64,000 bases of DNA, taken from the NCBI GenBank assembly GCA_037134915.1, contig JBAXLJ010000001.1, positions 229,484 to 293,483 of the forward strand. Reading direction: 5' to 3'. Shown one piece after another: positions 43,621-64,000 of this stretch (positions within the stretch are counted from its first letter, which is position 1; each line of letters opens with the position of its first letter). The notes under the pieces were generated by a model, which saw nothing but the letters and a program-made list of their open reading frames with translations, was not told where the DNA came from and searched no databases. Source of the DNA: Candidatus Falkowbacteria bacterium. Its GTDB lineage: Bacteria; Patescibacteriota; Patescibacteriia; Patescibacteriales; UBA12465. Both the position numbers and the translations under genes were made by a program.

Positions 43621-43623
43621 TCT

Positions 43624-47099: not shown

Positions 47100-47120
47100 A
47101 TATCTAGCTTTATTATAAGA

Positions 47121-47157: not shown

Positions 47158-47231
47158 TTTGGTGATATTTATTTGCTATAGATTATAAAAAGTTGTATAC
47201 TTTTAGCGTAATATTTTTTTAGTAAAACAGT

Positions 47232-47657
47232 ATGCACAAGAAAGGTTTCACCTTGATCGAGTTGTTAGTGGTCGTGGCTATTATCGGGCTTCTAGCTACA
47301 CTGTCTATGGTAGCGTTAAATAATGCCCGAGCTCGATCGCGTGACGCTAAAAGAGTGGCTGATGTCAAACAAATGCAAACTGCTCTCGAACTTTATTTTA
47401 ATGATCAGGGAACTTATCCTTCAGCGGTGCCTACTTCCGGAACGACCATTGCTAGCGGCACGGTTGTTTATATGAATAAGGTGCCTGTGCCGCCGCTGCC
47501 CGTTGATGGCACTTCTTGCCCCGCGAATCCGACGGCCTATACTTACGGTCAAACTGATTCGGGCAGATCTTACACTATCGCTTATTGTTTAGGAAATACC
47601 ACCGGCGGAATTGCGGGTAACGTGGTGTCGACGGCTACCCCAGCTGGCATAAAATAA
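47232..47657 (+). CDS. Type IV pilin paralog 2
   Basis: MHKKG|FTLIELLVVVAIIG; C-terminal TATPAGI. Confidence 0.9.
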   Translation: MHKKGFTLIELLVVVAIIGLLATLSMVALNNARARSRDAKRVADVKQMQTALELYFNDQGTYPSAVPTSGTTIASGTVVYMNKVPVPPLPVDGTSCPANPTAYTYGQTDSGRSYTIAYCLGNTTGGIAGNVVSTATPAGIK

Positions 47658-47714
47658 TTTATTTAAAAACTTTAAAACATTTAAAATATTTGTTTTAATC
47701 TAATTTATCTCAAT

Positions 47715-48146
47715 ATGAACAAGAAAAAAGGTTTTACCTTAATTGAATTGCTGGTGGTAGTCGCTATCATCGGCTTGCTAGCCACTTTATCAATTGTGGC
47801 CTTAAATAATGCTCGTGCTCGGGCTCGTGACGCTAAAAGAATCGCTGATATCAAGCAGATTCAAACCGCTTTAGAGCTTTATTACAATGATTGGGCAACT
47901 TACCCTGGCTCTATAAGCTCAGGAAGTGCAATTGCTAGCGGTACTGTCTATATGAATCAGGTACCAAACGCTCCAACTCCATTTGATAACAGTGGAACAG
48001 CTAATTGTACTGCCGCTAACAATCTTTATACTTATGCGGTTACTGGCGGAGCTTCACAAACTTACACTTTGACTTACTGTCTCGGTAATGCCACTGGTGG
48101 CGTTGCGGCTGGTTTAGGAACAGCGACTCCGGCCGGTATTAAATAA
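47715..48146 (+). CDS. Type IV pilin paralog 3
   Basis: MNKKKG|FTLIELLVVVAIIG; C-terminal TATPAGI. Confidence 0.9.
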   Translation: MNKKKGFTLIELLVVVAIIGLLATLSIVALNNARARARDAKRIADIKQIQTALELYYNDWATYPGSISSGSAIASGTVYMNQVPNAPTPFDNSGTANCTAANNLYTYAVTGGASQTYTLTYCLGNATGGVAAGLGTATPAGIK

Positions 48147-48165
48147 AAAATTGTTTAGTTTAAAA

Positions 48166-48195
48166 ATCAAGCGCCTAAAAACGCTTGATTTTTTG
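48166..48195 (+). terminator. Intrinsic terminator after pilin 3
   Basis: ATCAAGCG-CCTAAAAA-CGCTTGAT followed by T-run. It lies inside the ORF-track N-terminal extension of the next gene. Confidence 0.8.
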
Positions 48196-48255
48196 TTGCC
48201 ACTAAGAGAAAAAAGTTGTATAGTTTTATTTATAATTACTTTTTATTTAAAAAAT

Positions 48256-48678
48256 ATGAGAAAAAAAGGTTTTACCTTGATTGAATTACTAGTCGTGGTG
48301 GCCATTATCGGCTTACTGGCGACCCTATCGATCGTGGCCCTAAACAATGCCCGAGCTCGATCGCGCGACGCTAAACGAGTAGCCGATGTGAAGCAGATGC
48401 AAACGGCTTTGGAGCTTTATTTTAATGATAACGCCTCTTATCCAAGTAGCGTGACCCCCGGTGGCGTCATTAGTGTCACCAGCACAGTTTATATGAATCG
48501 GGTTCCAGTGCCACCACTGCCAGCTGATGGCGGCGCGCTTTGTCCGGCTAACCCGACGGCTTATACTTACGGTCAAACTGATTCCGGCCGTTCTTACACG
48601 ATTTCTTATTGTTTAGGTTTCACCACCGGAACGATTTTGCCTGGCGTCGGCACGGCGACACCAGCTGGTATTGATTAG
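48256..48678 (+). CDS. Type IV pilin paralog 4 (true start ATG 48256)
   Basis: MRKKG|FTLIELLVVVAIIG; C-terminal TATPAGI. Confidence 0.88.
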   Translation: MRKKGFTLIELLVVVAIIGLLATLSIVALNNARARSRDAKRVADVKQMQTALELYFNDNASYPSSVTPGGVISVTSTVYMNRVPVPPLPADGGALCPANPTAYTYGQTDSGRSYTISYCLGFTTGTILPGVGTATPAGID

Positions 48679-48764
48679 AATTTTCAAATTTTTGGCCTTA
48701 ATCCCGACTCGTAATCCTGCGAGCCGGGATTTTCTTTTGCCAGAAAAATCGGTATAATGAAAGT

Positions 48765-49733
48765 ATGAAAATTTTGCCTTTACTGAATACAAAAGTTGTT
48801 CAGGATTTTTTAGTCAAAGCCGCACCTAATTCGGGGGCGGAGTTTTTGGCGTCTCTTGAGTGGGCGGAAATTTTAAAAACTGAAGGGGCCAAAGTCGAAA
48901 CTCTAGGCGTTTATAATGACAATCAAGAACTAGTGGCCGTTTTTAATTTAATTTACCAGCGTCTATCCGTGGTTTATTCGCCACGCGGTCCGGTTTTTAA
49001 TCGGGGTTTATCCCAAGGCGAGCAAGTGGAAATCCTACAATTTTTAATCACTTATTTAAGAAATAAAAAGATAATTTTTTGGCGGGTTGAGCCTCGGGAA
49101 ATTTTACCCCCAGGTTTAAGCTTTAAAAAAGTTAAAAATTTACAGCCTCAAAAAACTTTAATGCTGAATTTAGAAGTTAGTGAGACGGAGTTGTTAAATA
49201 GTTTTCATCCAAAAACACGCTACAACATTAAATTAGCTGACAAGAAAGGCGTGGTTATTCGTGAGGGGGTAAATGCTACCGATTTTGAAGACTTTTGGTC
49301 TTTGATGGGTGAGACGGGTCGTCGCGATGCTTTTAAAATCCATAACAAAAATCATTATTTAAAACTGGCGACCGCTAAACCGGAATTTATTAAATTACTT
49401 TTGGCCCAAGTTAATCATCAGACGGTAGCCGCTGGTTTGTTTGCTTTCTATGGTAATAAAGTAACTTATTTACACGGCGCCTCTTCATATCAAAATCGGC
49501 AATTAATGGCGCCCTATCTTCTGCAGTGGACTTTAATTAAAATGGCGCGGGCGAGTCATTATAAGTACTATGATTTCTACGGCGTGGACGGACTTAAATG
49601 GCCGGGAGTGACTCGTTTTAAATTAGGCTTTTCTGGTTTTTCGGTTTCCTATGCGGGCACCTACGATTTAATTTTAAATCCAATAAAATATTATTTATAT
49701 AACCTGCTTAAAAAAGTTAAACGTTTTTTATGA
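48765..49733 (+). CDS. FemAB-family peptidoglycan interpeptide-bridge aminoacyltransferase
   Basis: ~320 aa with the family pattern KTRYNIKLADKKGV and ...YLHGASS... Confidence 0.78.
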   Translation: MKILPLLNTKVVQDFLVKAAPNSGAEFLASLEWAEILKTEGAKVETLGVYNDNQELVAVFNLIYQRLSVVYSPRGPVFNRGLSQGEQVEILQFLITYLRNKKIIFWRVEPREILPPGLSFKKVKNLQPQKTLMLNLEVSETELLNSFHPKTRYNIKLADKKGVVIREGVNATDFEDFWSLMGETGRRDAFKIHNKNHYLKLATAKPEFIKLLLAQVNHQTVAAGLFAFYGNKVTYLHGASSYQNRQLMAPYLLQWTLIKMARASHYKYYDFYGVDGLKWPGVTRFKLGFSGFSVSYAGTYDLILNPIKYYLYNLLKKVKRFL

Positions 49734-50191
49734 TTGAAATTACCAACACCACCAAACTTAAAATAAATAAAAAACAGCTGACTAATTTGAGTGAAGCCTT
49801 TTTGCAGACTTTTAAAAAAAGCCGCGTGGATGTTTCAATCGCTATTGTCGGCGACTTACAGATTAAAAGGCTTAATGATAAATATCGCGGACACAACACC
49901 ACAACAGACGTCTTGTCTTTTGCGGGAGCGGAGTGGGAAGGGAATCTGCTTGGCGAACTGATTATTAATCCCCGAGAAATAAAGCGCTTACATAAATATC
50001 GCGAGATTTTGGAATTTGTTGGATTAAAATATCCGCCAGTTAAGCTTAAATCAGCGGAGACTTATTTATTTTATTTTATTTTGATTCACGGACTCTTGCA
50101 TCTAATCGGTTATAACGATGAAACTGAAGAAGATCGTTTGCAAATGCTGCAAATCGGTCGCGATTTTTTGGACAAACATGGTATAATTTAA
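49730..50191 (+). CDS. ybeY: rRNA maturation endoribonuclease YbeY
   Basis: HGLLHLIGYNDE metal-binding motif (HGxLHLxGYD-type); 153 aa. Confidence 0.86.
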   Translation: MIEITNTTKLKINKKQLTNLSEAFLQTFKKSRVDVSIAIVGDLQIKRLNDKYRGHNTTTDVLSFAGAEWEGNLLGELIINPREIKRLHKYREILEFVGLKYPPVKLKSAETYLFYFILIHGLLHLIGYNDETEEDRLQMLQIGRDFLDKHGII

Positions 50192-50193
50192 TT

Positions 50194-51522
50194 ATGGTTA
50201 AATCTTTTTTAAAAATAATAATCCTATTTTCCTTAGTGGCTACGGTTTTTTTATTACAACCAGTAAAGCCCGCTCAGGCCTCAACCGCGGATAATATCCG
50301 AGGCTTAGCTTATAATAGTTTATATGGTTATATTAGTTTTAATTGCTTGGATGATGATTTTTCTGGTCGTTTTCCGTTCACTTTTCCCTTTACTTTTAAC
50401 ATCATTGCGTGCGCCAATAATAATCACGGCGTTAATTTAAGTGCTGACAATAATTTCTCCGGCGACGCTTGGAATACTTTTTTAGGACTAATTACTTTTA
50501 CTAGCACTTCGACGCCGCCTGACGGCGGTGCTTTTAGAGCCAACTGTGAAAATAGTGTGGCCACTAGCACAGCTTGCTATCGGGAACTTGACCGTAAAAT
50601 TTATGGTTATATGCGGGTAGTTTCAACTGGCGATTGGATTAACTTAAATGATTCTTCGATAACGCCGACAGCGGGGATTACTAATTATAACGATCCGGCG
50701 CCGGGTATTTTTTCTGGTTATGCCAGTTCGAGTTTTGGCGCTATTAGTTTTAACTGCACTAATGATGGTTCTTGTGCTACCAATAATTACAGCGTGGAAA
50801 TCGGCCCCACAGAAATTAGGCAGATGACCGCTCCGAATTGGGATAGCGTTTCAGCTTGTGCTAATGGGGCCGCTCACGCCTTTCTAAAGTGGAGTCGGCG
50901 CAGTGGTACGCAAACGGCTTATCAGTTGATTGTGAGTACGGCTAATAGCACCAGCAGTGGCGTGGTGGTTGATACTGGTAAAGTTAGTAACAGTGCGACG
51001 CAATACTCTTTTACGCCGCCAACAACTGATACGGCTTATTATTGGTTTTTAAGATTGTGGGACATCACCGATACCGTTACTCCTTGGCGGCAATTTAACA
51101 CCAGTGGTACCAAAGATTGGATCACCGATAATTATAACCGTAATTTACAGCGAGGTAATTCGGCCACTTTTACTAGTTATAAACACGAATTTCCACTGCC
51201 GCAGTTCACTTGGAATCCCATCGAAATTGTGGTGGCCACTACTAGTAATAGTTTTATCAGTAACTCTTCCTATTACACCGACGCCAATGTTATGCAAACT
51301 TGTAGTAGCGGTTCAGTCTGTTCTTATCTTTGGTCGGTGAGCGACGCAGGGGCGGTCGTTAGTAACCCAACCTCACCATCAACTTCCATTATGTTTACTC
51401 GAGCGACTAATACGGTGGTGACTTTATCTTCAACGGATGATGATATTTATACTTGTTCCACCTCGACGATGTTAAATGTTAATTTCTTACTACCAACTTG
51501 GAAAGAGGTTAAAGCTCAATAA
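50194..51522 (+). CDS. Secreted hypothetical protein with FN3-like module, inside the pilus locus
   Basis: Signal peptide ..VKPAQA|S. The segment LKWSRRSGTQTAYQLIVS...YYWFLRLWD resembles an FN3-like beta-sandwich. Confidence 0.5.
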   Translation: MVKSFLKIIILFSLVATVFLLQPVKPAQASTADNIRGLAYNSLYGYISFNCLDDDFSGRFPFTFPFTFNIIACANNNHGVNLSADNNFSGDAWNTFLGLITFTSTSTPPDGGAFRANCENSVATSTACYRELDRKIYGYMRVVSTGDWINLNDSSITPTAGITNYNDPAPGIFSGYASSSFGAISFNCTNDGSCATNNYSVEIGPTEIRQMTAPNWDSVSACANGAAHAFLKWSRRSGTQTAYQLIVSTANSTSSGVVVDTGKVSNSATQYSFTPPTTDTAYYWFLRLWDITDTVTPWRQFNTSGTKDWITDNYNRNLQRGNSATFTSYKHEFPLPQFTWNPIEIVVATTSNSFISNSSYYTDANVMQTCSSGSVCSYLWSVSDAGAVVSNPTSPSTSIMFTRATNTVVTLSSTDDDIYTCSTSTMLNVNFLLPTWKEVKAQ

Positions 51523-51528
51523 TTTTTT

Positions 51529-52077
51529 ATGAAAAAATCCGGCTTTACGTTAATTGAACTCATTGTTTCGGTCACTATTATTGCTTTAGTAACGGGAATT
51601 TTTTTGGCAAATTATAGCTCGGCTAATCGCCGTTCGGATTTAACCATGACAGCACAGAAAATGGTGACTGATATTCGAACGGCTCAAAATTATGCCTTAG
51701 GCTTAACTCGCTACGGTACTAGTGGTTCGACTAATGTTCCTTTTGGTGGCTGGGGGCTTCACTTCGATTTGCAAAATTATGGCGTTAATAAGTATGTAAT
51801 TTTTGCTGATGATGATGGTGATAAAATTTATGATAGTGGCGAGGATCTGGTTTCTAAGGGGGCGCAAGTGACAACTTTACCTAACAACATTAGTATTAGT
51901 TCACTGTCAACGGGGAATAAGGCGGATATAACTTTTTTGCCACCCGATCCAGTTACTACCATTACCGGTTCATCAGCGACCAGTTCGCAGCTAAATATTA
52001 TTCTCAAAGATAACAAAACTAACGCAATTAAAACGGTGCGCGTTAATTTTTTGGGTTTAGTTGAAGTCATTGATTAG
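51529..52077 (+). CDS. Minor pilin / pseudopilin (GspH/FimT-like)
   Basis: MKKSG|FTLIELIVSVTIIA prepilin N-terminus. Confidence 0.8.
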   Translation: MKKSGFTLIELIVSVTIIALVTGIFLANYSSANRRSDLTMTAQKMVTDIRTAQNYALGLTRYGTSGSTNVPFGGWGLHFDLQNYGVNKYVIFADDDGDKIYDSGEDLVSKGAQVTTLPNNISISSLSTGNKADITFLPPDPVTTITGSSATSSQLNIILKDNKTNAIKTVRVNFLGLVEVID

Positions 52078-52078
52078 T

Positions 52079-52597
52079 ATGAAATTATTTAAGAAACTAC
52101 AAACTAAAGCCGGCTTTTCGCTAATTGAAATTTTAGCCGTTTTGTTTGTAGTGTCTACTTCGCTTTTAGGTATTTTGTCGCTCATTAATCAAAATATTCA
52201 AGTTCAAAGCATCAACCGTAATAATTTAATTGCTTCCAGTCTGGCTCAGGAAGGAGTCGAACTGATTCGGCAAACCAGGGACTCCAATTGGCGGGCCGGA
52301 GTGGCATATGGCACTAATTTAGGGACCGGTTCTTATCGCATTGATTATCGTCAAGACGCGCCGACGCCGGTTAGCACGCTGTCGGAAGCGCAAATTTATT
52401 TGAAAAATGGTTTTTATGTAAATAATAGTGGCGGTGAAACCGGCCTGACACCGACTATTTTTTACCGACAAGTTTTTTTAAATAAACCCAGTGGTTATTT
52501 AGGGGCGCCACTGCAAGTCAGGGTGCTGATTTCTTGGACAGACCGTAAGCATCCGTATAATTATGAACTAAGAACTTTACTTTTTGATTGGCGCTAA
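52079..52597 (+). CDS. Minor pilin / pseudopilin (PilV/GspI-like)
   Basis: ..TKAG|FSLIEILAVLFVV prepilin N-terminus. ATG 52079 follows the upstream stop. Confidence 0.75.
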   Translation: MKLFKKLQTKAGFSLIEILAVLFVVSTSLLGILSLINQNIQVQSINRNNLIASSLAQEGVELIRQTRDSNWRAGVAYGTNLGTGSYRIDYRQDAPTPVSTLSEAQIYLKNGFYVNNSGGETGLTPTIFYRQVFLNKPSGYLGAPLQVRVLISWTDRKHPYNYELRTLLFDWR

Positions 52598-52602
52598 AAA
52601 AT

Positions 52603-53154
52603 ATGAATGGATTGAAAAATAAAACTGGTTTTTCTTTGATTGAGGTGCTAGTGGCCACTTCGCTGTTTGTGATAATTGTCACCGCCTCTTTGGGTGTTTT
52701 TAAAATGGTGATTGACAGTCAAAGAAGTGCGATTGCCACCCAGAATGTGGAGGAGAGTTTGAAATATTTTTTAGAGGTTACTGGCAAGGAAATTAGAATG
52801 GCCAAACGTAATAACGGTTTGTGCAGCGGTCCTAGCAGTACCGATATTTATTATTCCGTTGATAATACTTTAACTTTTCGCAATTATCATGATCAGTGTG
52901 TGACTTATTCTTTGAGTTCTTTTCAGGGAATCAGCCGTTTTACAATTACCAGGGATGGTTTAACTGATTTTATTACCCCAGCCAAAATTAATTTGGATGA
53001 ACTAAATTTTGTGTTACGCCCTGAGGGTGGAACCAATAATAATCAGCCCACGGTGACGATGGAACTAGTGGCACACGCCTTAGGTTTGTACAGCGCTAAA
53101 TCAGAAATCAGGATTCAAACGACTTTAACTTCCAGATATTATTTATTAAATTAA
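52603..53154 (+). CDS. Minor pilin / pseudopilin (PilW/GspJ-like)
   Basis: ..NKTG|FSLIEVLVATSLFV prepilin N-terminus. Confidence 0.72.
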   Translation: MNGLKNKTGFSLIEVLVATSLFVIIVTASLGVFKMVIDSQRSAIATQNVEESLKYFLEVTGKEIRMAKRNNGLCSGPSSTDIYYSVDNTLTFRNYHDQCVTYSLSSFQGISRFTITRDGLTDFITPAKINLDELNFVLRPEGGTNNNQPTVTMELVAHALGLYSAKSEIRIQTTLTSRYYLLN

Positions 53155-53157
53155 TTT

Positions 53158-53571
53158 ATGATCTCCAAGAAAAATAATAAAAATATTTTACAAAGGGGCA
53201 GCGCTTTACTGCTAACTTTATTTTTAGTGTCCGGGATTATGATTGTCGCTTTTGCTGGTTCTTATATTATTGTCTCTGGACTCAGATCAGGCGGTCTGCA
53301 ATATGATTCTTCACGGGCTTATTATACCGCCGAAAGCGGGGCCGAGTACTCTTTAATGCGAGTTCGGAAAATGGCCGATTTTGATATTAGAGATTTCTCA
53401 ATTCAGGATTTGTTAGATATTATTTTAGGATTTTTAGGCGGATCATCGAAAGCAATGCCTGATTCTTATCCGTCCTCGTTTAAGATTGATTATAAATCTT
53501 GGACGCCGATCGTTTTAACTTCCACTGGGACTTATGGCACGACTCAGCGAGGGGTGGAGATAAGTTTTTAA
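53158..53571 (+). CDS. PilX/GspK-like pilus-associated protein
   Basis: N-terminal hydrophobic helix RGSALLLTLFLVSGIMIVA; last gene of the minor-pilin set. Confidence 0.4.
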   Translation: MISKKNNKNILQRGSALLLTLFLVSGIMIVAFAGSYIIVSGLRSGGLQYDSSRAYYTAESGAEYSLMRVRKMADFDIRDFSIQDLLDIILGFLGGSSKAMPDSYPSSFKIDYKSWTPIVLTSTGTYGTTQRGVEISF

Positions 53572-53862
53572 TTTAAGAGTCTCTGGTGATATTTTGTGAG
53601 CTCGCTTCTCACTTTTTCTTCCATTTTTTGTCGAGTGATGGCGCCGGCACTATTTAAAATTTTTCTTTTTCTTGATTCTAATTCTTGAAAATAACTTTTT
53701 TCAGTTTACCTCTTTGTTGCCCTCTTTTTGAACTATCCAGTAATCCTGGATAGTTTGATTTTCGTTAAGTTCAGACTCATTATACACATTTTGTAAATGT
53801 AAACTAATGGTTCTGATATCTTTTTTTAAAAGACTATCCAGAGGATAGTCTTTTAGAACTAA

Positions 53863-54468
53863 TTAGATTATTGAAAACTTTTTAAGTCCGTCTTTGATTT
53901 CTTTTTCAGGGGTTATGTTCCCTGGGAGATAAACGACTTCTTCGCTATAATCGATATCTTTGAAATAGGCTAAAGCCTCTCTAAAGGCCCTGACATTGAA
54001 TTCTTCGCCGAATATTTGTTTTGCTTTGGCGGCTATTTTTTTAACGGAGTAGTGTTTAGAAATTATAAAATATAAATCAACATAATCTTTCCATTTATTG
54101 CGACGGCTTAAGGCATAAGCTTTCATCGCCGCTAAGGTTAGTAAATCTGGCATTTTTATCAACTCGGACGATACTTTTATTTTAAAAGGGTATTCTAAAA
54201 AGGTAAATTGCACTCCTTTAATGTAAAAAGTAAATTGTCCAGCTTCATCAAGAGCAACCTTGCTTATTTTTTCGCCCGCTTCGTTAATTATTTTTTTTAT
54301 CTTAGCGTTGCTAAATTTTTTAGAAGTAAATAAATCAAAATCAATCGATTCACGATGTCCTAAATAAAGAGCGATAGCTGTACCGCCGACCAAGAAGAAA
54401 TCTTTAGAAAATTTATTGACCAGCGGAAGAAGTCTGGTTTGTTCGGCACTTAAAATTTCTTTATGCAT
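53863..54468 (-). CDS. Nucleotidyltransferase AbiEii/AbiGii-family toxin (start at internal ATG 54468)
   Basis: FFLVGGTAIALYLGHRESIDFDLF signature. The start overlaps the upstream gene stop in ATGCATAA. Confidence 0.78.
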   Translation of the reverse strand: MHKEILSAEQTRLLPLVNKFSKDFFLVGGTAIALYLGHRESIDFDLFTSKKFSNAKIKKIINEAGEKISKVALDEAGQFTFYIKGVQFTFLEYPFKIKVSSELIKMPDLLTLAAMKAYALSRRNKWKDYVDLYFIISKHYSVKKIAAKAKQIFGEEFNVRAFREALAYFKDIDYSEEVVYLPGNITPEKEIKDGLKKFSII

Positions 54469-54727
54469 ACTGTTTAAAATAGAGAGTAAAATAATTTTTA
54501 GTTTTATCGCGGTAATTGTTTCTTTTTTGTTTAATTTGCTTTTTGAAAATAAGCGCTGTCTTTTGTGTTCCCAAGATTTTGAGTAAAAGCAAAACGTCAT
54601 CCCAATCGCCGTAATTAAGAGTCGCTTCAACAATAGCCTCGTCGGATAAACGCTGATAGTTTTTAACCCACCAAATTAAATGGGGGCGTTTTTTGATAAA
54701 ATTTATGATTTTTTGTCGTTCTAGCAT
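54461..54727 (-). CDS. Small protein translationally coupled to the AbiEii toxin (putative antitoxin)
   Basis: 88 aa; 8-nt overlap with the toxin start. Family not recognised. Confidence 0.45.
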   Translation of the reverse strand: MLERQKIINFIKKRPHLIWWVKNYQRLSDEAIVEATLNYGDWDDVLLLLKILGTQKTALIFKKQIKQKRNNYRDKTKNYFTLYFKQYA

Positions 54728-54963
54728 AGCTTTATTTTAACATATTTAGTCGGTATTTTCAAGGTGGTCGGTATTTATTTTTTCAGTAATAAAATTAATT
54801 ATTAGATGGCTATAAATAATTGTTGGCGAGTAAAATTTAAATAATTTACTAACTACTTCAAGACCTTTTAAAATAAGGCTGAAAATCACTTCTAAAACCT
54901 TTGCGCGACCGCCTAAAAATTGGTATAATTTACTTAGTTGTAAGAGGCGGATTAGAAGAGCCT

Positions 54964-57900
54964 ATGCTTAAAGAAAACAACAAGAAAAAAACAATCAGAC
55001 GCCTGACTAAGGTCTGTCTTTTTGTTTTACTCTTAGCTGGTTCTTTTTTGTTTGGGGCTAATTCTCGGGCCGCTAATAATGACTATAATAAAATCGCCAC
55101 TAGCACCCTAACGGCGGTGGAGTGGAATAATTTAATTAATGATTTTGTAAATACTTGGAAGTCGGATTCAATGGTTGGTCCTTTGGGAATTGGAACAACT
55201 AATCCTTTGTATTCTTTGGATGTCAACGGCACTGGTTCTTTTAACCAACCTTTAATTGTGGGGACGCCAACGGCCTCTAATCACGCGGCGACTAAAAATT
55301 ATGTCGACTCGATTATTGGTGGCGGCTCTGGTTCAACGGTTGGTTATTGGACGATGAACGGTATAAATATAAATAATTCTAATGCGGGTAATGTGGGGAT
55401 TGGAACAGCTTCGCCAGCTAGTAAACTTGATGTCGTGGGCAATGCGGCTATTTCCGGAACACTGACGGTGCCAACAATTAATGGATTAAGTATCTCTAAT
55501 TTCTACGGACCTAATAACGCTATTACTTGGAATGTGACAGCGCCGGCTTCTTATACTAACAATAATGTGGTCGCTCCGGATTTTACCACCACGGCGGCGA
55601 CTCTTAATTTTACAGCTGGTAATGGTAGTCACTGGGATTTATACAATGCTATGTCTGGCTTGACTCCGGGCGCTTCTTACACGGTGTCGCTTTATGTGAA
55701 ATTAGGAACTTCAACTAACTTTTCTTTAGTCGTAAACAACGCGGCAGCTTGGAATACGATTGGCGGTCGAGTATTTACGGCAGCTGATGGTTTAAGCACT
55801 TCAGCTTGGAAACAAATTTCTTATACTTTTACAGAGCCAGTTGGAAAAACGACTGCCAATATCCATATCGGAGCTAATCAAGAAACGGCTTTAACGGGAA
55901 CACCGCAGGTAGTTGGCTCGGTTTATGTTTGGGGATTTCAAGTAGTGCAAAATAACGCTGGAACCTTGGCTCTACAGCCAACAGTTGGAAACGTGGGAAT
56001 TGGTGTCTCGGCGCCAGGAAGCAAATTATCAATCAGGGGGGCTTCCGGAAGTAATGCTCTGGAAATCCAAAGAGCCAGTGATGGTGCTTCAATGATCACT
56101 GTTGATGATTGGGGGCAATTAAATGCTAGTCATGGTTTTATGATCAGTGCTGGTGGTGGTTATAGTGGTAATTCTGTTTTAGATGTTAGGTCATCATCGG
56201 CCGGTCATATTCCGTTTTCGGTTTTAGGTTATAGCGGTCAGACTGGTAATTTAGTAAACATCACTAGCAATGGCGGCACTCAAGGTAATTTATTTAATAT
56301 TCAGGCTAATGGAAATGTCGGGATTGGGACGACTAATCCTTTGGCTCCATTAGCAATTGTAACCCCGAGTAGCGGTAATTATGAGGCTATTAGAATAAAC
56401 AGGGATGCTACTGGGGCGACATATTGGAGTTTAGGATCTGTATATAATAATACAAATCCAGATTTGATTTTTAAAGTTAATGGAGGCGAAAAAATTAGAT
56501 TTGATGTAAATGGCAACGTCGGTATTGGAACAACGAGCCCACTTTTCAAATTAGATGTAAACGGTACCGGTTCCTTTAATCAACCAGTTGTTGTTGGTAC
56601 GCCAACTATCGCTAGTCACGCGGCGACTAAAAATTATGTTGACTCGGCTATCGGCGGTGGCTCTGGTTCAACGGTTGGTTATTGGGCAATGAATGGAACT
56701 AATATTAATAATTCTAATGCTGGAAACGTTGGAGTCGGGACTACGACTCCTGGTTTTAAGTTAGATGTTAATGGTAATGCCAGATTTACTGATATCTACA
56801 ACTCGGGAACAGTTTTAAAAAAATCTCCATATGAATATTACGGCAGTGTTTATTTAAGTAACACTCTTGATAGTACTAATAATACGGCCTATGTTAATAT
56901 TGGAACTTTTCAAGATGGCTTTACTCATATAAACGTAGAAGTTGAGCTTGTTCCTTGGTTATTTAGCACTGGTAATATAGGTAGCTATCAAAAGTCTTAT
57001 ACGATTAGAATGACGGCTGCTAGTCCTGGGATAGTAAATGTCTATGATTCACGGGTTATTAAAGATGTTGGTCAGACTGGAGACAGATATCAGATTGGGA
57101 CACCCGAAGCTGATGCCAATAATTTACTAAGAATTCCTATTAAATATATTGGTGCTGGCGGTGGCAATCAAATTCAAGCTTTTGTTCGTGTTACTGGCAC
57201 TATGTCGGGAAATATTGACGATGTCAGTCTTTCGGCTGTCGCCGCCACTCCAGTTTCGGCCGGAACACAGGAGTATATGAGTTTCAGAAATAGGTTGGGG
57301 ATTGGAATTACAAATCCTTTAGGAACTCTTCATGTTTCAAACGCTTCTTCTACTAATGCGTTGGTTGTATCTTCTGGAGGACAAATAGGTGTAGGAATCG
57401 CTACGCCACAATCAATAGGAACTAATTATGGAACTATAGATGTGCGAGGCCCTAGTGGTGGTGGCTTTTTCTTTGGTCCGTCTGCTGGCCCATCCGGTTT
57501 ATTTTATTCTAACGGTTCTCAATTATACATGGGTTCGTATACAAACATACCACTTAATCTTCAAACAAATAATTTAGTAAGAGCCACAATAGATGGTGGT
57601 GGCAATGTTGGTATCGGTACTACCTCCCCATTGTATAAACTAGACGTTAATGGCACCGGCTCCTTCAACCAACCAGTGATTGTAGGCACACCAACCATCG
57701 CTAGCCACGCGGCCACTAAAAATTATGTTGATTCAGCTTTAAGTGGTGGTTCTGGTTCCACTGTTGGTTATTGGGTGATGAATGGAACTAATATTAATAA
57801 TTCTAATGCAGGAAATGTGGGCATTGGAACAACAAATCCTGGAGGGGTGCTGCAAGTTACTGGCACAGAAAATAGTCGAGTGATATTAAGTCAATCTACT

Positions 57901-59283
57901 TTTGATTATGCTAAAAAAAGTCCAAAATTATCATTTTTCGCATACGGAGATAATGGCTTGATTACAGGTCCTTCAATTCAAAAAACAAGCACTGGTTCTT
58001 ATGGGGCTGGTAATTTAGGATTTATTCAACATCCTACGGGTGATTACACAACAGAAGTTGAGGTCATGACTATAACCCCAACCGGTAACGTCGGGATTGG
58101 GACGACCTTGCCGAATGGAAAGTTAGATATTAGAGATGCTAATAATGCCGCAATATACCTTTCATCAAGTGCGGCTGATGCCACTTCAGCTACCTCAAAG
58201 ATATATAGTGGTTATGGTGGCTCTGGCGGATGGGCGAATACATATTTAAGATTTGCTACTTCGCCTGCATCTGGCACTTTTAATGATTCGATGACAATTT
58301 TGGGAAACGGTAATATTGGGGTTGGAACGACTAATCCATTACAATTATTAGATGTGCGCTCGGCTAATGCTACCGCTCCTATTATAGCCGCTGGGTCAAC
58401 GCTTTCTTCTTATTCTGCTAATTCAGTAGTATCGACAATTTCTTTGGGGTCATATTATACAACTGGTTTGCAATTCTATTCAGCTGGGCAAATTTCTGGT
58501 AAATTAGATGAAGTGCTTAATTATTTAGCCGATGAAATGGAGAAAAGTTATGATATGGCCTCGAAGGTTAAGGGGGCGATGATTTATCCAATTTTTATCT
58601 TAGTCGGACTAATTGGCGTGGCGATTGTTTTGATGGTTTATGTAATTCCTAATTTGACTTCGGTGCTGACAGAGTCGGGCGCCGAATTACCCTTTGCCAC
58701 TCGCGTGGTTATTGGCACTTCTAATTTTTTAACTAAATATTTATTATTGTTATTTTTGGCCTGTGTTGGTTTAGCTTTCTTGGCCCGTTTATATCTTAAG
58801 ACTTATAACGGTCAGCGTAATTTAGATATTGTTAAGTTGCGGATGCCAATTTTTGGCACACTCTTTAAATATATTTATCTGATGCGTTTTACCCGTTCGC
58901 TCTCTACCTTACTTAAAGGTGGCGTGACTATTACTAAGAGTTTAGAGATTGTGGCTGATGTGGTCAGTAACGTTATTTATAAGGAAATTATTTTAGCTAC
59001 TTTAGAATCGATCAATGATGGTAATCCATTATCTACGGTTATGGAAAACGAACCAACAATTCCGAAAATGGTGCCACAAATGTTAGCGGTTGGTGAACGT
59101 ACCGGTAAGATTGATGTGGTTCTGGATAAAATTACCGAATTTTATAGTCGGGAAGCGGATAAAATGCTGGCTAATTTAAGTACCTTGATGGAGCCAGTGA
59201 TTATGACCGTAATGGGTATCGGCGTCGGAATTATGGTGGCGGCGGTTATTATGCCGATGTATAACATGGCTAGCCAGTTCTAA
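54964..59283 (+). CDS. Chimeric ORF: ~1,177-aa tail-fibre-like repeat surface protein fused in frame at nt 58494 to PilC residues ~140-401
   Basis: Signal/TM MLKENNKKKTIRRLTKVCLFVLLLAGS. Three copies of GIGTT.P..KLDVNGTGSFNQP..VGTPT..SHAATKNYVDS..GGGSGSTVGYW.MNG.NINNSNAGNVG. The C-terminal 262 aa are identical to the pilC product. Confidence 0.7.
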   Translation: MLKENNKKKTIRRLTKVCLFVLLLAGSFLFGANSRAANNDYNKIATSTLTAVEWNNLINDFVNTWKSDSMVGPLGIGTTNPLYSLDVNGTGSFNQPLIVGTPTASNHAATKNYVDSIIGGGSGSTVGYWTMNGININNSNAGNVGIGTASPASKLDVVGNAAISGTLTVPTINGLSISNFYGPNNAITWNVTAPASYTNNNVVAPDFTTTAATLNFTAGNGSHWDLYNAMSGLTPGASYTVSLYVKLGTSTNFSLVVNNAAAWNTIGGRVFTAADGLSTSAWKQISYTFTEPVGKTTANIHIGANQETALTGTPQVVGSVYVWGFQVVQNNAGTLALQPTVGNVGIGVSAPGSKLSIRGASGSNALEIQRASDGASMITVDDWGQLNASHGFMISAGGGYSGNSVLDVRSSSAGHIPFSVLGYSGQTGNLVNITSNGGTQGNLFNIQANGNVGIGTTNPLAPLAIVTPSSGNYEAIRINRDATGATYWSLGSVYNNTNPDLIFKVNGGEKIRFDVNGNVGIGTTSPLFKLDVNGTGSFNQPVVVGTPTIASHAATKNYVDSAIGGGSGSTVGYWAMNGTNINNSNAGNVGVGTTTPGFKLDVNGNARFTDIYNSGTVLKKSPYEYYGSVYLSNTLDSTNNTAYVNIGTFQDGFTHINVEVELVPWLFSTGNIGSYQKSYTIRMTAASPGIVNVYDSRVIKDVGQTGDRYQIGTPEADANNLLRIPIKYIGAGGGNQIQAFVRVTGTMSGNIDDVSLSAVAATPVSAGTQEYMSFRNRLGIGITNPLGTLHVSNASSTNALVVSSGGQIGVGIATPQSIGTNYGTIDVRGPSGGGFFFGPSAGPSGLFYSNGSQLYMGSYTNIPLNLQTNNLVRATIDGGGNVGIGTTSPLYKLDVNGTGSFNQPVIVGTPTIASHAATKNYVDSALSGGSGSTVGYWVMNGTNINNSNAGNVGIGTTNPGGVLQVTGTENSRVILSQSTFDYAKKSPKLSFFAYGDNGLITGPSIQKTSTGSYGAGNLGFIQHPTGDYTTEVEVMTITPTGNVGIGTTLPNGKLDIRDANNAAIYLSSSAADATSATSKIYSGYGGSGGWANTYLRFATSPASGTFNDSMTILGNGNIGVGTTNPLQLLDVRSANATAPIIAAGSTLSSYSANSVVSTISLGSYYTTGLQFYSAGQISGKLDEVLNYLADEMEKSYDMASKVKGAMIYPIFILVGLIGVAIVLMVYVIPNLTSVLTESGAELPFATRVVIGTSNFLTKYLLLLFLACVGLAFLARLYLKTYNGQRNLDIVKLRMPIFGTLFKYIYLMRFTRSLSTLLKGGVTITKSLEIVADVVSNVIYKEIILATLESINDGNPLSTVMENEPTIPKMVPQMLAVGERTGKIDVVLDKITEFYSREADKMLANLSTLMEPVIMTVMGIGVGIMVAAVIMPMYNMASQF
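55184..55410 (+). repeat. Internal coding repeat A of the large surface protein
   Basis: ~75-aa module; see repeats B and C. Confidence 0.8.
56518..56750 (+). repeat. Internal coding repeat B
   Basis: Same module; DNA diverged mostly at synonymous positions. Confidence 0.8.
57607..57840 (+). repeat. Internal coding repeat C
   Basis: Same module. Confidence 0.8.
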
Positions 59284-59365
59284 CTCTTGTAGTGTTTATT
59301 GATTATGATATAATATTAAGGTATTATAATTTATATACTAAAATAAATAGTTTAAAAAAAATTTT

Positions 59366-59779
59366 ATGAAGAAGAAAGGTTTTACCTTGATTGAATTACT
59401 CGTCGTTGTGGCCATTATCGGATTGCTGGCGACCCTATCAATCGTGGCTTTAAATAACGCTCGTGCCCGGGCTCGTGATGCTAAGCGGGTGGCCGATGTT
59501 AAACAAGTTCAAACCGCTCTAGAGCTTTATTATAACGATCAAGGTTCTTACCCAACCTCAATTCCAACCTCCGGAGTAATGATTGCTAGCGGAACAACAG
59601 TTTACATGAATCAGATTCCTGTTGCCCCAACTCCATTTGATGGTGGTTGCACCGCCGCTAACAACTCTTATGTTTATGCCGGCACCTCTCAGACTTACAC
59701 TTTAACTTACTGTTTAGGTAACGCCACTGGTGGCATTGTCGCCGGTTACGGCACCGCCACTCCAGCGGGTATCAGATAA
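59366..59779 (+). CDS. Type IV pilin paralog 1, duplicate copy
   Basis: Protein identical to 46686..47099. Confidence 0.9.
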   Translation: MKKKGFTLIELLVVVAIIGLLATLSIVALNNARARARDAKRVADVKQVQTALELYYNDQGSYPTSIPTSGVMIASGTTVYMNQIPVAPTPFDGGCTAANNSYVYAGTSQTYTLTYCLGNATGGIVAGYGTATPAGIR

Positions 59780-59911
59780 ATATCTAGCTTTATTATAAGA
59801 ATCAAGTATTTCTAAAAAAGATACTTGATTTTTTTATTTTGGTGATATTTATTTGCTATAGATTATAAAAAGTTGTATACTTTTAGCGTAATATTTTTTT
59901 AGTAAAACAGT

Positions 59912-60337
59912 ATGCACAAGAAAGGTTTCACCTTGATCGAGTTGTTAGTGGTCGTGGCTATTATCGGGCTTCTAGCTACACTGTCTATGGTAGCGTTAAA
60001 TAATGCCCGAGCTCGATCGCGTGACGCTAAAAGAGTGGCTGATGTCAAACAAATGCAAACTGCTCTCGAACTTTATTTTAATGATCAGGGAACTTATCCT
60101 TCAGCGGTGCCTACTTCCGGAACGACCATTGCTAGCGGCACGGTTGTTTATATGAATAAGGTGCCTGTGCCGCCGCTGCCCGTTGATGGCACTTCTTGCC
60201 CCGCGAATCCGACGGCCTATACTTACGGTCAAACTGATTCGGGCAGATCTTACACTATCGCTTATTGTTTAGGAAATACCACCGGCGGAATTGCGGGTAA
60301 CGTGGTGTCGACGGCTACCCCAGCTGGCATAAAATAA
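59912..60337 (+). CDS. Type IV pilin paralog 2, duplicate copy
   Basis: Protein identical to 47232..47657. Confidence 0.9.
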   Translation: MHKKGFTLIELLVVVAIIGLLATLSMVALNNARARSRDAKRVADVKQMQTALELYFNDQGTYPSAVPTSGTTIASGTVVYMNKVPVPPLPVDGTSCPANPTAYTYGQTDSGRSYTIAYCLGNTTGGIAGNVVSTATPAGIK

Positions 60338-60394
60338 TTTATTTAAAAACTTTAAAACATTTAAAATATTTGTTTTAATCTAATTTATCTCAAT

Positions 60395-60826
60395 ATGAAC
60401 AAGAAAAAAGGTTTTACCTTAATTGAATTGCTGGTGGTAGTCGCTATCATCGGCTTGCTAGCCACTTTATCAATTGTGGCCTTAAATAATGCTCGTGCTC
60501 GGGCTCGTGACGCTAAAAGAATCGCTGATATCAAGCAGATTCAAACCGCTTTAGAGCTTTATTACAATGATTGGGCAACTTACCCTGGCTCTATAAGCTC
60601 AGGAAGTGCAATTGCTAGCGGTACTGTCTATATGAATCAGGTACCAAACGCTCCAACTCCATTTGATAACAGTGGAACAGCTAATTGTACTGCCGCTAAC
60701 AATCTTTATACTTATGCGGTTACTGGCGGAGCTTCACAAACTTACACTTTGACTTACTGTCTCGGTAATGCCACTGGTGGCGTTGCGGCTGGTTTAGGAA
60801 CAGCGACTCCGGCCGGTATTAAATAA
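60395..60826 (+). CDS. Type IV pilin paralog 3, duplicate copy
   Basis: Protein identical to 47715..48146. Confidence 0.9.
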   Translation: MNKKKGFTLIELLVVVAIIGLLATLSIVALNNARARARDAKRIADIKQIQTALELYYNDWATYPGSISSGSAIASGTVYMNQVPNAPTPFDNSGTANCTAANNLYTYAVTGGASQTYTLTYCLGNATGGVAAGLGTATPAGIK

Positions 60827-60935
60827 AAAATTGTTTAGTTTAAAAATCAAGCGCCTAAAAACGCTTGATTTTTTGTTGCCACTAAGAGAAAAAAGTTGTA
60901 TAGTTTTATTTATAATTACTTTTTATTTAAAAAAT

Positions 60936-61358
60936 ATGAGAAAAAAAGGTTTTACCTTGATTGAATTACTAGTCGTGGTGGCCATTATCGGCTTACTGGC
61001 GACCCTATCGATCGTGGCCCTAAACAATGCCCGAGCTCGATCGCGCGACGCTAAACGAGTAGCCGATGTGAAGCAGATGCAAACGGCTTTGGAGCTTTAT
61101 TTTAATGATAACGCCTCTTATCCAAGTAGCGTGACCCCCGGTGGCGTCATTAGTGTCACCAGCACAGTTTATATGAATCGGGTTCCAGTGCCACCACTGC
61201 CAGCTGATGGCGGCGCGCTTTGTCCGGCTAACCCGACGGCTTATACTTACGGTCAAACTGATTCCGGCCGTTCTTACACGATTTCTTATTGTTTAGGTTT
61301 CACCACCGGAACGATTTTGCCTGGCGTCGGCACGGCGACACCAGCTGGTATTGATTAG
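60936..61358 (+). CDS. Type IV pilin paralog 4, duplicate copy
   Basis: Protein identical to 48256..48678. Confidence 0.88.
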   Translation: MRKKGFTLIELLVVVAIIGLLATLSIVALNNARARSRDAKRVADVKQMQTALELYFNDNASYPSSVTPGGVISVTSTVYMNRVPVPPLPADGGALCPANPTAYTYGQTDSGRSYTISYCLGFTTGTILPGVGTATPAGID

Positions 61359-61444
61359 AATTTTCAAATTTTTGGCCTTAATCCCGACTCGTAATCCTGC
61401 GAGCCGGGATTTTCTTTTGCCAGAAAAATCGGTATAATGAAAGT

Positions 61445-62413
61445 ATGAAAATTTTGCCTTTACTGAATACAAAAGTTGTTCAGGATTTTTTAGTCAAAGC
61501 CGCACCTAATTCGGGGGCGGAGTTTTTGGCGTCTCTTGAGTGGGCGGAAATTTTAAAAACTGAAGGGGCCAAAGTCGAAACTCTAGGCGTTTATAATGAC
61601 AATCAAGAACTAGTGGCCGTTTTTAATTTAATTTACCAGCGTCTATCCGTGGTTTATTCGCCACGCGGTCCGGTTTTTAATCGGGGTTTATCCCAAGGCG
61701 AGCAAGTGGAAATCCTACAATTTTTAATCACTTATTTAAGAAATAAAAAGATAATTTTTTGGCGGGTTGAGCCTCGGGAAATTTTACCCCCAGGTTTAAG
61801 CTTTAAAAAAGTTAAAAATTTACAGCCTCAAAAAACTTTAATGCTGAATTTAGAAGTTAGTGAGACGGAGTTGTTAAATAGTTTTCATCCAAAAACACGC
61901 TACAACATTAAATTAGCTGACAAGAAAGGCGTGGTTATTCGTGAGGGGGTAAATGCTACCGATTTTGAAGACTTTTGGTCTTTGATGGGTGAGACGGGTC
62001 GTCGCGATGCTTTTAAAATCCATAACAAAAATCATTATTTAAAACTGGCGACCGCTAAACCGGAATTTATTAAATTACTTTTGGCCCAAGTTAATCATCA
62101 GACGGTAGCCGCTGGTTTGTTTGCTTTCTATGGTAATAAAGTAACTTATTTACACGGCGCCTCTTCATATCAAAATCGGCAATTAATGGCGCCCTATCTT
62201 CTGCAGTGGACTTTAATTAAAATGGCGCGGGCGAGTCATTATAAGTACTATGATTTCTACGGCGTGGACGGACTTAAATGGCCGGGAGTGACTCGTTTTA
62301 AATTAGGCTTTTCTGGTTTTTCGGTTTCCTATGCGGGCACCTACGATTTAATTTTAAATCCAATAAAATATTATTTATATAACCTGCTTAAAAAAGTTAA
62401 ACGTTTTTTATGA
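61445..62413 (+). CDS. FemAB-family aminoacyltransferase, duplicate copy
   Basis: Protein identical to 48765..49733. Confidence 0.78.
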   Translation: MKILPLLNTKVVQDFLVKAAPNSGAEFLASLEWAEILKTEGAKVETLGVYNDNQELVAVFNLIYQRLSVVYSPRGPVFNRGLSQGEQVEILQFLITYLRNKKIIFWRVEPREILPPGLSFKKVKNLQPQKTLMLNLEVSETELLNSFHPKTRYNIKLADKKGVVIREGVNATDFEDFWSLMGETGRRDAFKIHNKNHYLKLATAKPEFIKLLLAQVNHQTVAAGLFAFYGNKVTYLHGASSYQNRQLMAPYLLQWTLIKMARASHYKYYDFYGVDGLKWPGVTRFKLGFSGFSVSYAGTYDLILNPIKYYLYNLLKKVKRFL

Positions 62414-62871
62414 TTGAAATTACCAACACCACCAAACTTAAAATAAATAAAAAACAGCTGACTAATTTGAGTGAAGCCTTTTTGCAGACTTTTAAAAAAA
62501 GCCGCGTGGATGTTTCAATCGCTATTGTCGGCGACTTACAGATTAAAAGGCTTAATGATAAATATCGCGGACACAACACCACAACAGACGTCTTGTCTTT
62601 TGCGGGAGCGGAGTGGGAAGGGAATCTGCTTGGCGAACTGATTATTAATCCCCGAGAAATAAAGCGCTTACATAAATATCGCGAGATTTTGGAATTTGTT
62701 GGATTAAAATATCCGCCAGTTAAGCTTAAATCAGCGGAGACTTATTTATTTTATTTTATTTTGATTCACGGACTCTTGCATCTAATCGGTTATAACGATG
62801 AAACTGAAGAAGATCGTTTGCAAATGCTGCAAATCGGTCGCGATTTTTTGGACAAACATGGTATAATTTAA
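62410..62871 (+). CDS. ybeY: YbeY endoribonuclease, duplicate copy
   Basis: Protein identical to 49730..50191. Confidence 0.86.
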   Translation: MIEITNTTKLKINKKQLTNLSEAFLQTFKKSRVDVSIAIVGDLQIKRLNDKYRGHNTTTDVLSFAGAEWEGNLLGELIINPREIKRLHKYREILEFVGLKYPPVKLKSAETYLFYFILIHGLLHLIGYNDETEEDRLQMLQIGRDFLDKHGII

Positions 62872-62873
62872 TT

Positions 62874-64000
62874 ATGGTTAAATCTTTTTTAAAAATAATA
62901 ATCCTATTTTCCTTAGTGGCTACGGTTTTTTTATTACAACCAGTAAAGCCCGCTCAGGCCTCAACCGCGGATAATATCCGAGGCTTAGCTTATAATAGTT
63001 TATATGGTTATATTAGTTTTAATTGCTTGGATGATGATTTTTCTGGTCGTTTTCCGTTCACTTTTCCCTTTACTTTTAACATCATTGCGTGCGCCAATAA
63101 TAATCACGGCGTTAATTTAAGTGCTGACAATAATTTCTCCGGCGACGCTTGGAATACTTTTTTAGGACTAATTACTTTTACTAGCACTTCGACGCCGCCT
63201 GACGGCGGTGCTTTTAGAGCCAACTGTGAAAATAGTGTGGCCACTAGCACAGCTTGCTATCGGGAACTTGACCGTAAAATTTATGGTTATATGCGGGTAG
63301 TTTCAACTGGCGATTGGATTAACTTAAATGATTCTTCGATAACGCCGACAGCGGGGATTACTAATTATAACGATCCGGCGCCGGGTATTTTTTCTGGTTA
63401 TGCCAGTTCGAGTTTTGGCGCTATTAGTTTTAACTGCACTAATGATGGTTCTTGTGCTACCAATAATTACAGCGTGGAAATCGGCCCCACAGAAATTAGG
63501 CAGATGACCGCTCCGAATTGGGATAGCGTTTCAGCTTGTGCTAATGGGGCCGCTCACGCCTTTCTAAAGTGGAGTCGGCGCAGTGGTACGCAAACGGCTT
63601 ATCAGTTGATTGTGAGTACGGCTAATAGCACCAGCAGTGGCGTGGTGGTTGATACTGGTAAAGTTAGTAACAGTGCGACGCAATACTCTTTTACGCCGCC
63701 AACAACTGATACGGCTTATTATTGGTTTTTAAGATTGTGGGACATCACCGATACCGTTACTCCTTGGCGGCAATTTAACACCAGTGGTACCAAAGATTGG
63801 ATCACCGATAATTATAACCGTAATTTACAGCGAGGTAATTCGGCCACTTTTACTAGTTATAAACACGAATTTCCACTGCCGCAGTTCACTTGGAATCCCA
63901 TCGAAATTGTGGTGGCCACTACTAGTAATAGTTTTATCAGTAACTCTTCCTATTACACCGACGCCAATGTTATGCAAACTTGTAGTAGCGGTTCAGTCTG
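62874..64000 (+). CDS. Secreted FN3-like protein, duplicate copy (3' end cut by the window)
   Basis: DNA identical to 50194-51320 where checked. Confidence 0.5.
   Translation, partial: MVKSFLKIIILFSLVATVFLLQPVKPAQASTADNIRGLAYNSLYGYISFNCLDDDFSGRFPFTFPFTFNIIACANNNHGVNLSADNNFSGDAWNTFLGLITFTSTSTPPDGGAFRANCENSVATSTACYRELDRKIYGYMRVVSTGDWINLNDSSITPTAGITNYNDPAPGIFSGYASSSFGAISFNCTNDGSCATNNYSVEIGPTEIRQMTAPNWDSVSACANGAAHAFLKWSRRSGTQTAYQLIVSTANSTSSGVVVDTGKVSNSATQYSFTPPTTDTAYYWFLRLWDITDTVTPWRQFNTSGTKDWITDNYNRNLQRGNSATFTSYKHEFPLPQFTWNPIEIVVATTSNSFISNSSYYTDANVMQTCSSGSV

Follow-up and report, generated by a model that had tools for sequence, protein, structure and literature searches.

In Escherichia coli, the junctions of amplified segments lie at identities of 4–15 bp, often flanked by more short identities, and the amplicons span 7–32 kb (PMC1428787). 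The GspF/PilC platform proteins have a topology of three transmembrane segments (TMS), with alternating Cyto1 and Cyto2 domains in a ring that contacts the ATPase, and they share a conserved Tyr-Pro in TMS1 and a conserved Glu-Pro in TMS3 (PMC10790770). Here we describe a locus at which both subjects come together, in a stretch of 64,000 nucleotides (the window) from Candidatus Falkowbacteria bacterium, assembly GCA_037134915.1, contig JBAXLJ010000001.1, positions 229,484 to 293,483. Near the right end of the window an open reading frame (ORF) joins the N-terminal part of a very large tail-fibre-like protein, in frame, to the C-terminal part of PilC. We regard this chimera as the probable by-product of a real, very recent, microhomology-mediated tandem duplication of 12,680 bp, arranged head to tail. 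The mechanism and the outcome, a fusion ORF at a tandem-duplication junction, are textbook; the instance itself is undescribed.

A chimeric reading frame between two intact parents

The ORF of the chimera opens at 54901 (TTG) or 54964 (ATG) and stops at 59283, and no ORF of 80 aa or longer lies on the opposite strand beneath the junction. The original prediction, made from the DNA alone, had the large ORF passing into pilC sequence at 58494 without a change of frame, and a direct reading of the ORF bears this out in every particular. The chimera reads ..YSAGQISG-KLDEVLNYLADEM.. where native PilC reads ..IIRSGETSG followed by KLDEV.., and the peptides that span its junction are ..YSAGQISGKLDEV.. 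/ ..YSAGQISGKLDEVLNY... Its residues 1–1179 are those of a native protein of 2,981 aa, with identity at every position (1179/1179), and its residues 1180–1439 are PilC residues 142–401. The predicted make-up of the 1,439-aa product is confirmed as well, with a signal or anchor at the N-terminus, about 1,150 residues of tail-fibre-like repeats (including three copies of a 243-nt repeat) and a GspF/PilC module at the C-terminus.

Both parents are present as whole genes. Native pilC comes directly after pilB (43624–45384; T2SSE 3e-126), and its product aligns with the Myxococcus xanthus PilC (3jc8) over residues 5–399 and covers the NCBIfam PilC and GspF models from end to end. The un-fused large gene, which the original prediction had proposed to look for, encodes MEI6835503.1 (P0121, WCK59_01600) and lies on the same 314,016-bp contig, 14 proteins downstream of the chimera. 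A protein search with the non-PilC part had led to the chimera as MEI6835489.1, in a record titled as a metagenome-assembled genome (MAG) of Candidatus Falkowbacteria bacterium, and MEI6835503.1 is the sole other member of its 90% cluster. Past residue 1179 the native large protein continues as ..QISG-VNENNVDSAYGALSF.. with 1,800 further residues of the same repeat type, to a C-terminal end reading ..ILDANGNISIGI; it has no PilC domain. The chimera cuts the fibre at residue 1179 of 2981, about 40% of its native size.

The large gene has the sequence AAGAGG about 16 nt ahead of its ATG, and further upstream a box that resembles an extended -10 element (Table 1), which was not listed by a promoter scanner that needs a -35 hexamer. 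Because this box and AAGAGG sit within the duplicated unit, the chimera retains the expression signals of the large gene, and it is probably transcribed, judging by these sequence motifs. The cleavage site of the signal peptide is a putative one.

The name tail-fibre-like is fair for the large protein. The native protein matches two PHROG tail-fibre families, 9942 (at 2.4e-85) and 18345 (at 3.5e-68), and the chimera scores 43.9 bits against the NCBIfam model GTA_spike_fiber, for which the cut-off is 36. The N-terminal 1,179 residues contain a reiterated motif, GNVGIGTT.P..KLDV.G..-..ATKNYVDS, so that reiterated fibre repeats with similarity to phage tail fibres are present. The large protein has 1,151 homologues at E≤1e-10, many of which carry PF13884 (Peptidase_S74); an S74-type chaperone domain had been suggested for the native C-terminus, but the native protein has no Pfam match at E≤0.01 and no S74 domain. 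PF00482 was found in the chimera only among the 120 listed homologues, and in none of the other 119, so that the relatives give no sign of the PilC-like C-terminus that the original prediction had named as evidence for an ancestral domain architecture.

A second giant fibre paralogue, MEI6835505.1 (P0005, WCK59_01610; 1,930 aa, partial), is encoded beyond the window, two genes past the native large gene; it is 41% identical to the query across one quarter of the latter, and the contig stops inside it. The locus is a cluster of repetitive giant genes, in which assembly breaks and rearrangements are likely. Exact 35-mers upstream of the junction have no match in GTDB representative genomes or in JGI metagenomes, and in a protein-guided scan of contigs the matches were all to distant relatives (41% identity for L003, 33% for L004), with no near-identical genome showing the unduplicated state.

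The duplicated unit

The basis for the fusion is apparent from a direct repeat in the window, in which positions 45814–51320 and 58494–64000 are the same over 5,507 nt, with 0 mismatches, at an offset of 12,680; the second copy continues past the window end. We refer to the repeated segment as unit R (Table 1). It contains the 3′ two-thirds of pilC, four major-pilin paralogues, FemAB, YbeY, a 442-aa secreted protein with Ig domains, four minor-pilin-like genes, AbiEii with an ORF of 88 aa, and 3.6 kb from the 5′ end of the large gene. From the chimera, MEI6835489, to the native large gene, MEI6835503, the accessions advance by 14, which is the gene number of one 12.68-kb unit (pilins and minor-pilin-like genes, four of each, with FemAB, YbeY, AbiEii, the 442-aa protein, the 88-aa ORF and the large gene). 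This spacing, together with the intact native large gene, indicates that copy 2 of R is complete. The deposited contig thus appears from its sequence to have the layout X-R-R-Y, with pilC whole in copy 1, the large gene whole in copy 2, and the chimera at the R-R join. The arrangement is that of a tandem duplication, with two adjacent direct copies head to tail (the completeness of the second by the accession spacing), and with both parents intact, pilC within the window and the 2,981-aa large gene further along the contig. Because the copies are 100% identical over the shared 5,507 nt, the event appears to be very young.

Table 1. Features of the junction, its two parents and the duplicated unit (window positions)
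Feature	Position	Strand	Basis or detail
Native pilC, parent 1	45398..46603	+	401 aa from ATG 45398; ORF opens at TTG 45374; PF00482 x2, 4.5e-59
Partner microhomology site in native pilC, CTGGGGAAACTTCTGGT	45804..45820	+	sequence comparison
Unit R, copy 1	45814..58493	+	12,680 nt; offset and exact identity; Logan contig SRR12676973_7955 begins exactly at 45814
Extended -10-like box, TGGTATAAT	54921..54929	+	upstream of the large gene; read from the sequence by consensus resemblance only
Chimeric junction ORF, 1,439 aa	54964..59283	+	aa counted from the ATG; deposited as MEI6835489.1, 'type II secretion system F family protein'
Putative signal peptide or signal anchor of the large protein, MLKENNKKKTIRRLTK-VCLFVLLLAGSFLFGA-NSRA	54964..55071	+	hydrophobic residues 11-29 after 7 K/R
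Junction microhomology, CTGGGCAAATTTCTGG(T)	58484..58500	+	14/16 (15/17) identity to 45804-45820; crossover interval 58494-58500
Unit R, copy 2	58494..64000	+	first 5,507 nt in the window, remainder beyond; 100% identical to 45814-51320
Unambiguous pilC-derived part of the chimera	58501..59283	+	last Cyto1 helix, TMS1 58591-58647, TMS2 ~58705-58761, Cyto2, TMS3 59176-59232

Some of the genes within R have features of their own. The four tandem major-pilin paralogues lie at 46686–48678 (and again at 59366–61358), encode proteins of 137–143 aa with N_methyl/T2SSG motifs (the reading frame of the fourth starts earlier, at TTG), are spaced at about 480–550 nt, and share 72–77% nucleotide identity. 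From these similarities they appear to be older tandem duplications at the same locus, which the 12.68-kb event would have brought to eight genes. A gene for an AbiEii-type nucleotidyltransferase toxin (PF08843, 7.6e-16; 53863–54727) lies on the opposite (minus) strand, with the minor-pilin genes on one side and the large fibre gene on the other; it has an overlapping upstream ORF of 88 aa, and this pair is carried inside the duplicated unit.

The breakpoint

The duplication has a single novel junction, from the large gene (58493) to pilC (45814), and it is found at a short identity, the shared bases of which are known in part from protein sequence. To the left of the first shared base, positions 45804–45813 (CTGGGGAAAC) and 58484–58493 (CTGGGCAAAT) agree at 8 of 10 positions, just as first noted, and the similarity can be extended to the right through the shared codons for I-S-G. 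The native large protein keeps these residues (..QISG) and then continues with VNENN, where the chimera continues with KLDEV. Because the native large protein also reads ISG there, T-TCT-GG(T) at 58494–58499/58500 belongs to both parents, and the position of the crossover can be narrowed no further than 58494–58500. The parental homology is then CTGGG-AAA-TTCTGG(T), with 14 of 16 bases identical (a native Gly codon of GGT would make this 15 of 17) and a longest contiguous identity of 6–7 bases. In 5 million random pairs of sites from the window, the frequency was 1.0e-6 for agreement at 14 or more of 16 positions, and 5.3e-4 with the last 6 bases identical. The proposal of a fusion at a duplication junction with microhomology is therefore upheld, by the repeat offset of 12,680 and by the rarity of such homology among random pairs. 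That the join is in frame is a 1-in-3 event and by itself not significant.

Support for the junction in an independent assembly

Contigs from the Logan resource provide a second view of the junction; they are built at k=31 from distinct 31-mers, with singleton k-mers dropped and the graph cleaned with Minia3 (PMC12424806). Two contigs of run SRR12676973 meet at the left boundary of R. The first, SRR12676973_13247 (29,573 bp), is identical to the window from 33624 to 45843 and ends at 45843. The other, SRR12676973_7955 (10,905 bp), begins at 45814, is identical over the 10,790 nt compared, and by its length ends at 56718; the two overlap by 30 nt, which is k-1. Genes for the 137-aa pilin, FemAB (322 aa) and the 442-aa protein are present on this second contig. 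We compared the contig ends with a k=31 graph made from the window sequence; between 33624 and 58530 this graph has branch nodes only at 45814–45843 (with its copy at 58494–58523) and at an intragenic repeat, 56689–56720 / 57778–57809. The 30-mer at 45814 has C or T as its left neighbour, and cutting the sequence ahead of the junction removes this branch from the in-silico graph. Both predicted breaks coincide with observed ends of Logan contigs, the one at 56718 serving as an internal control.

Because the contigs break at 45814 as the graph predicts only when the junction is included, the reads of SRR12676973 should hold a second left-hand context for the 30-mer at that position. Nor could an assembler invent the join by k-mer overlap, since the parents share only 6–7 contiguous bases. 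The presence of the junction in the reads is in this way indicated indirectly, from the ends of Logan contigs, and the original prediction, which would have been undone by a lack of physical support for the junction, has graph-level support in an independent assembly. A literature search for run SRR12676973 found no paper. Comparison of independent k=31 contig ends with predicted branch points is a cheap test of a junction when the reads are out of reach.

The PilC module of the chimera

The portion of PilC that the chimera contains is a substantial but incomplete one. The six-helix bundle of Cyto1, the domain seen in the crystal, corresponds to PilC residues 61–167, and the break follows PilC residue 141, such that the chimera is without the N-domain and five of the six Cyto1 helices. 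The GspF model TIGR02120 aligns with it only over positions 135–399 of 401, scoring 217.9 bits where the cut-off is 424, and the score against the PilC equivalog model is 210.2 where the cut-off is 700; PF00482 itself is passed, owing to Cyto2. The conserved Tyr-Pro of TMS1 (..AMIYPIFIL..) and Glu-Pro of TMS3 (..LMEPVIM..) are both present, inherited from pilC. Two complete T2SSF repeats (Cyto1 and Cyto2) are not, and judged by this two-repeat criterion the chimera falls outside the GspF/PilC family in a functional sense.

The topology of the module is also likely to be disturbed. The hydropathy and charge of native PilC suggest an orientation with the N-terminus inside and the C-terminus outside, with one lysine or arginine (K/R) in the loop between TMS1 and TMS2, 17 in the Cyto2 loop and none in the tail, a pattern in agreement with the three-TMS topology of PMC10790770. 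By hydropathy the chimera has an extra N-terminal signal or anchor ahead of the three PilC helices. If its N-terminal part is exported the PilC helices would be inverted and Cyto2 would lie outside; the alternative is retention of the huge N-terminal part on the inner side. In both cases the predicted topology would prevent the PilC module of the chimera from sitting as it does natively.

Origin of the duplication and alternative explanations

A simple explanation, and the one that we consider probable, is that the chromosome of this member of the Patescibacteria (Candidate Phyla Radiation, CPR) underwent an illegitimate event guided by microhomology, which may have been a template switch or an unequal sister-strand exchange. 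This would have linked ..GGGCAAAT-TTCTGG of the large tail-fibre-like gene to ..GGGGAAAC-TTCTGG-TAAA of pilC, giving X-R-R-Y. Only the junction would be new, as an ORF that takes its promoter, its signal peptide and its first 1,179 residues from the large gene and continues in frame with the last 260 residues of PilC. Its product would be expected to undergo misinsertion and turnover, or at most to interfere with PilC assembly. The chimera is in all likelihood a by-product, either without function or mildly harmful, and of the two alternatives originally put forward it is this one that is favoured; the other, an expressed adhesin tethered to the helices of the pilus platform, would be unlikely to work, because the modelled topology is inverted and most of Cyto1 is lost. 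If the duplication has a selectable effect, the only plausible one is that the pilin, minor-pilin, FemAB and YbeY genes are present at twice the dose, and it would not come from the fusion. The repeat, the junction, the two intact parents, the microhomology and a branch of the read graph at the boundary are observed, and the mechanism, the expression, the topology and any fixation of the duplication are inferred.

Several points weigh against a real duplication with a by-product ORF. An assembler would print perfectly identical copies whether or not they are truly identical, and a short-read assembler could write X-R-J-R-Y from a graph loop with the junction in only part of the population. The support from Logan is at the level of the graph (the read depth expected over R is 2x), and SRR12676973 may be the MAG's own library, in which case Logan is a second assembly and not a second sample. 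The 6–7 nt of microhomology are deduced from protein, the DNA of the native large gene at that point being outside the window, and the topological argument is a prediction built from hydropathy and the known GspF/PilC topology.

These points bear differently on the rival explanations. The junction may be real but polymorphic, confined to a subpopulation or variable in copy number, with the loop walked once by the assembler; this is a variant nested within the explanation given above, none of the observations speaks against it, and we consider it possible but doubtful. Tandem duplications are unstable and heterogeneous in populations, and with copies that are 100% identical the event is a very young one; spontaneous duplication junctions have been described in Salmonella cultures (PMC3411829). 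The Logan graph, for its part, shows only that the junction k-mers were present at least twice and survived cleaning. Minia-type cleaning removes low-coverage connecting edges, and a branch that withstands it would point to a junction that is not rare. That no molecule carries the join, and that it is purely an artefact of assembly or library, is very unlikely. The source is a MAG, the duplication is about 20 kb from a contig end inside the repetitive giant gene P0005, and identical copies are typical of repeats written by an assembler; but a second assembler with a different k breaks at exactly 45814/45843, for which a second left neighbour is needed in the reads, and so short a run of shared bases permits no false join by k-mer overlap. 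Random chimeric reads, moreover, would be singletons, and Logan drops k-mers seen once, while the 14/16 homology (1e-6 by chance) and the two intact parents fit biological recombination. A circular 12.68-kb molecule, consisting of excised R alongside an unduplicated chromosome, would yield a B-to-A junction and a graph indistinguishable from those of the tandem duplication, but it is a far-fetched source given that R ends inside two genes and is devoid of an integrase, of a replication gene and of terminal repeats; a circle of this kind would be unable to replicate, and would be formed chiefly by pop-out from an existing duplication.

The remaining alternatives concern the protein more than the DNA. 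It is unlikely that the duplication is a selected dosage amplification of the pilin/minor-pilin/FemAB block in a natural population of a CPR episymbiont, caught before the copies diverged, with the junction protein made and phenotypic, either as a truncated membrane-anchored fibre or as a dominant-negative PilC fragment that alters pilus assembly. A functional new protein, in which a fibre or adhesin is anchored by the PilC helices or coupled to the pilus platform and the fusion is retained by selection, is highly improbable. It is true that the join is in frame, that the promoter-like box, ribosome-binding site and signal peptide are kept, as are the Tyr-Pro of TMS1, the Glu-Pro of TMS3 and the complete second T2SSF repeat, and that Tad systems have platform proteins with a single Cyto domain, TadB and TadC (PMC10790770). 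Against this, one join in three would be in frame by chance, zero divergence between the copies leaves no time for selection on the fusion, and the architecture occurs in no other homologue among the 120 listed; Cyto2, with its 17 K/R, would be outside, contrary to the native topology and the positive-inside rule, Cyto1, part of the ring that contacts the ATPase, is five-sixths deleted, and the fibre ends at 1179 of 2981. Finally, an ancestral domain architecture of tail-fibre repeats with the C-terminal half of PilC has next to no chance of being correct, and nothing was found in its favour: the native locus is matched base for base by the PilC part and by the 4.7 kb that follow it, a PilC-free native large gene is on the same contig, and PF00482 is seen only in the chimera among the 120 listed homologues. 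It was rejected on the repeat identity, the domain listing of the homologues and the 1179/1179 match to the un-fused gene.

The main practical consequence of the probable tandem duplication is for annotation. The GenBank name of MEI6835489.1 rests on the last 260 residues of a 1,439-aa protein, and is misleading and could propagate. The entry would be better flagged as a duplication-junction chimera, and should not be cited in support of a novel arrangement of PilC or of an adhesin anchored to the pilus. In biological terms the locus is a clear natural case of tandem duplication by microhomology in a CPR bacterium with a reduced genome, and one that doubles a pilin cluster already tandem-duplicated.

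Other features of the window

Two further features lie in the left part of the window. An intergenic cassette is present in copies at 1–65, 694–840, 15377–15516, 15809–15884, 16199–16345 and 16886–16961, which are similar over 65–110 nt at 60–86% identity. Its core, ..CCGC..ATTGACAAAAGTATAC.AA.ATGGTATGCTTTTT, comprises TTGACA, a 17-nt spacer and an extended -10-like TGGTATGCT, with a conserved leader next to it. Each copy is upstream of a small plus-strand ORF without a Pfam match (98–601, 884–1453, 15506–15760, 15928–16131 and 16390–16821), and an ORF at 17030–17758 has a weak match to Polbeta nucleotidyltransferases. From its sequence organization the set looks like a family of small genes under one common promoter and leader. 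At 6443–9730, on the minus strand, is a gene for a 1,094-aa protein with a GH18 (chitinase-like) domain, a polysaccharide deacetylase domain and a family-2 glycosyltransferase/chitin-synthase-like domain; it is unusual in having domains for breakdown, modification and synthesis in one polypeptide.

Relationship to described systems

Three groups of described systems offer the closest comparisons. The tail fiber domain-containing proteins of Patescibacteria and other uncultivated bacteria have hundreds of homologues, of 1,400–2,000 aa, and like the large protein described here consist of fibre repeats. Many end in a C-terminal Peptidase_S74 (PF13884), unlike the native large protein, which is without S74, and unlike the chimera, which ends in membrane helices.

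The GspF/PilC platform proteins (PF00482 x2; PilC 3jc8/2whn; PulF, PMC10790770) resemble the chimera to the extent that its C-terminal 260 residues are PilC itself, and both have a TMS1 with Tyr-Pro, a TMS2, a complete Cyto2/T2SSF repeat and a TMS3 with Glu-Pro. The chimera departs from them in lacking the N-domain and Cyto1 helices 1–5, and in having a signal peptide and about 1,150 residues, predicted to be exported, in front. It also does not adjoin pilB, as native pilC does.

The duplication itself is most readily compared with the lac amplification of E. coli (Slack et al. 2006, PMC1428787). In both there are head-to-tail repeats with an amplicon of the order of 10 kb (7–32 kb there, and 12.68 kb here), and a junction at an identity of 4–15 bp accompanied by short identities that are separated by mismatches, represented here by TTCTGG(T) after AAA and CTGGG. 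Both parental sequences are likewise retained, and the one new junction can fuse two genes. The differences are that the present example comes from an uncultivated CPR bacterium, recovered from a metagenome and without laboratory selection, and that only two copies are written.

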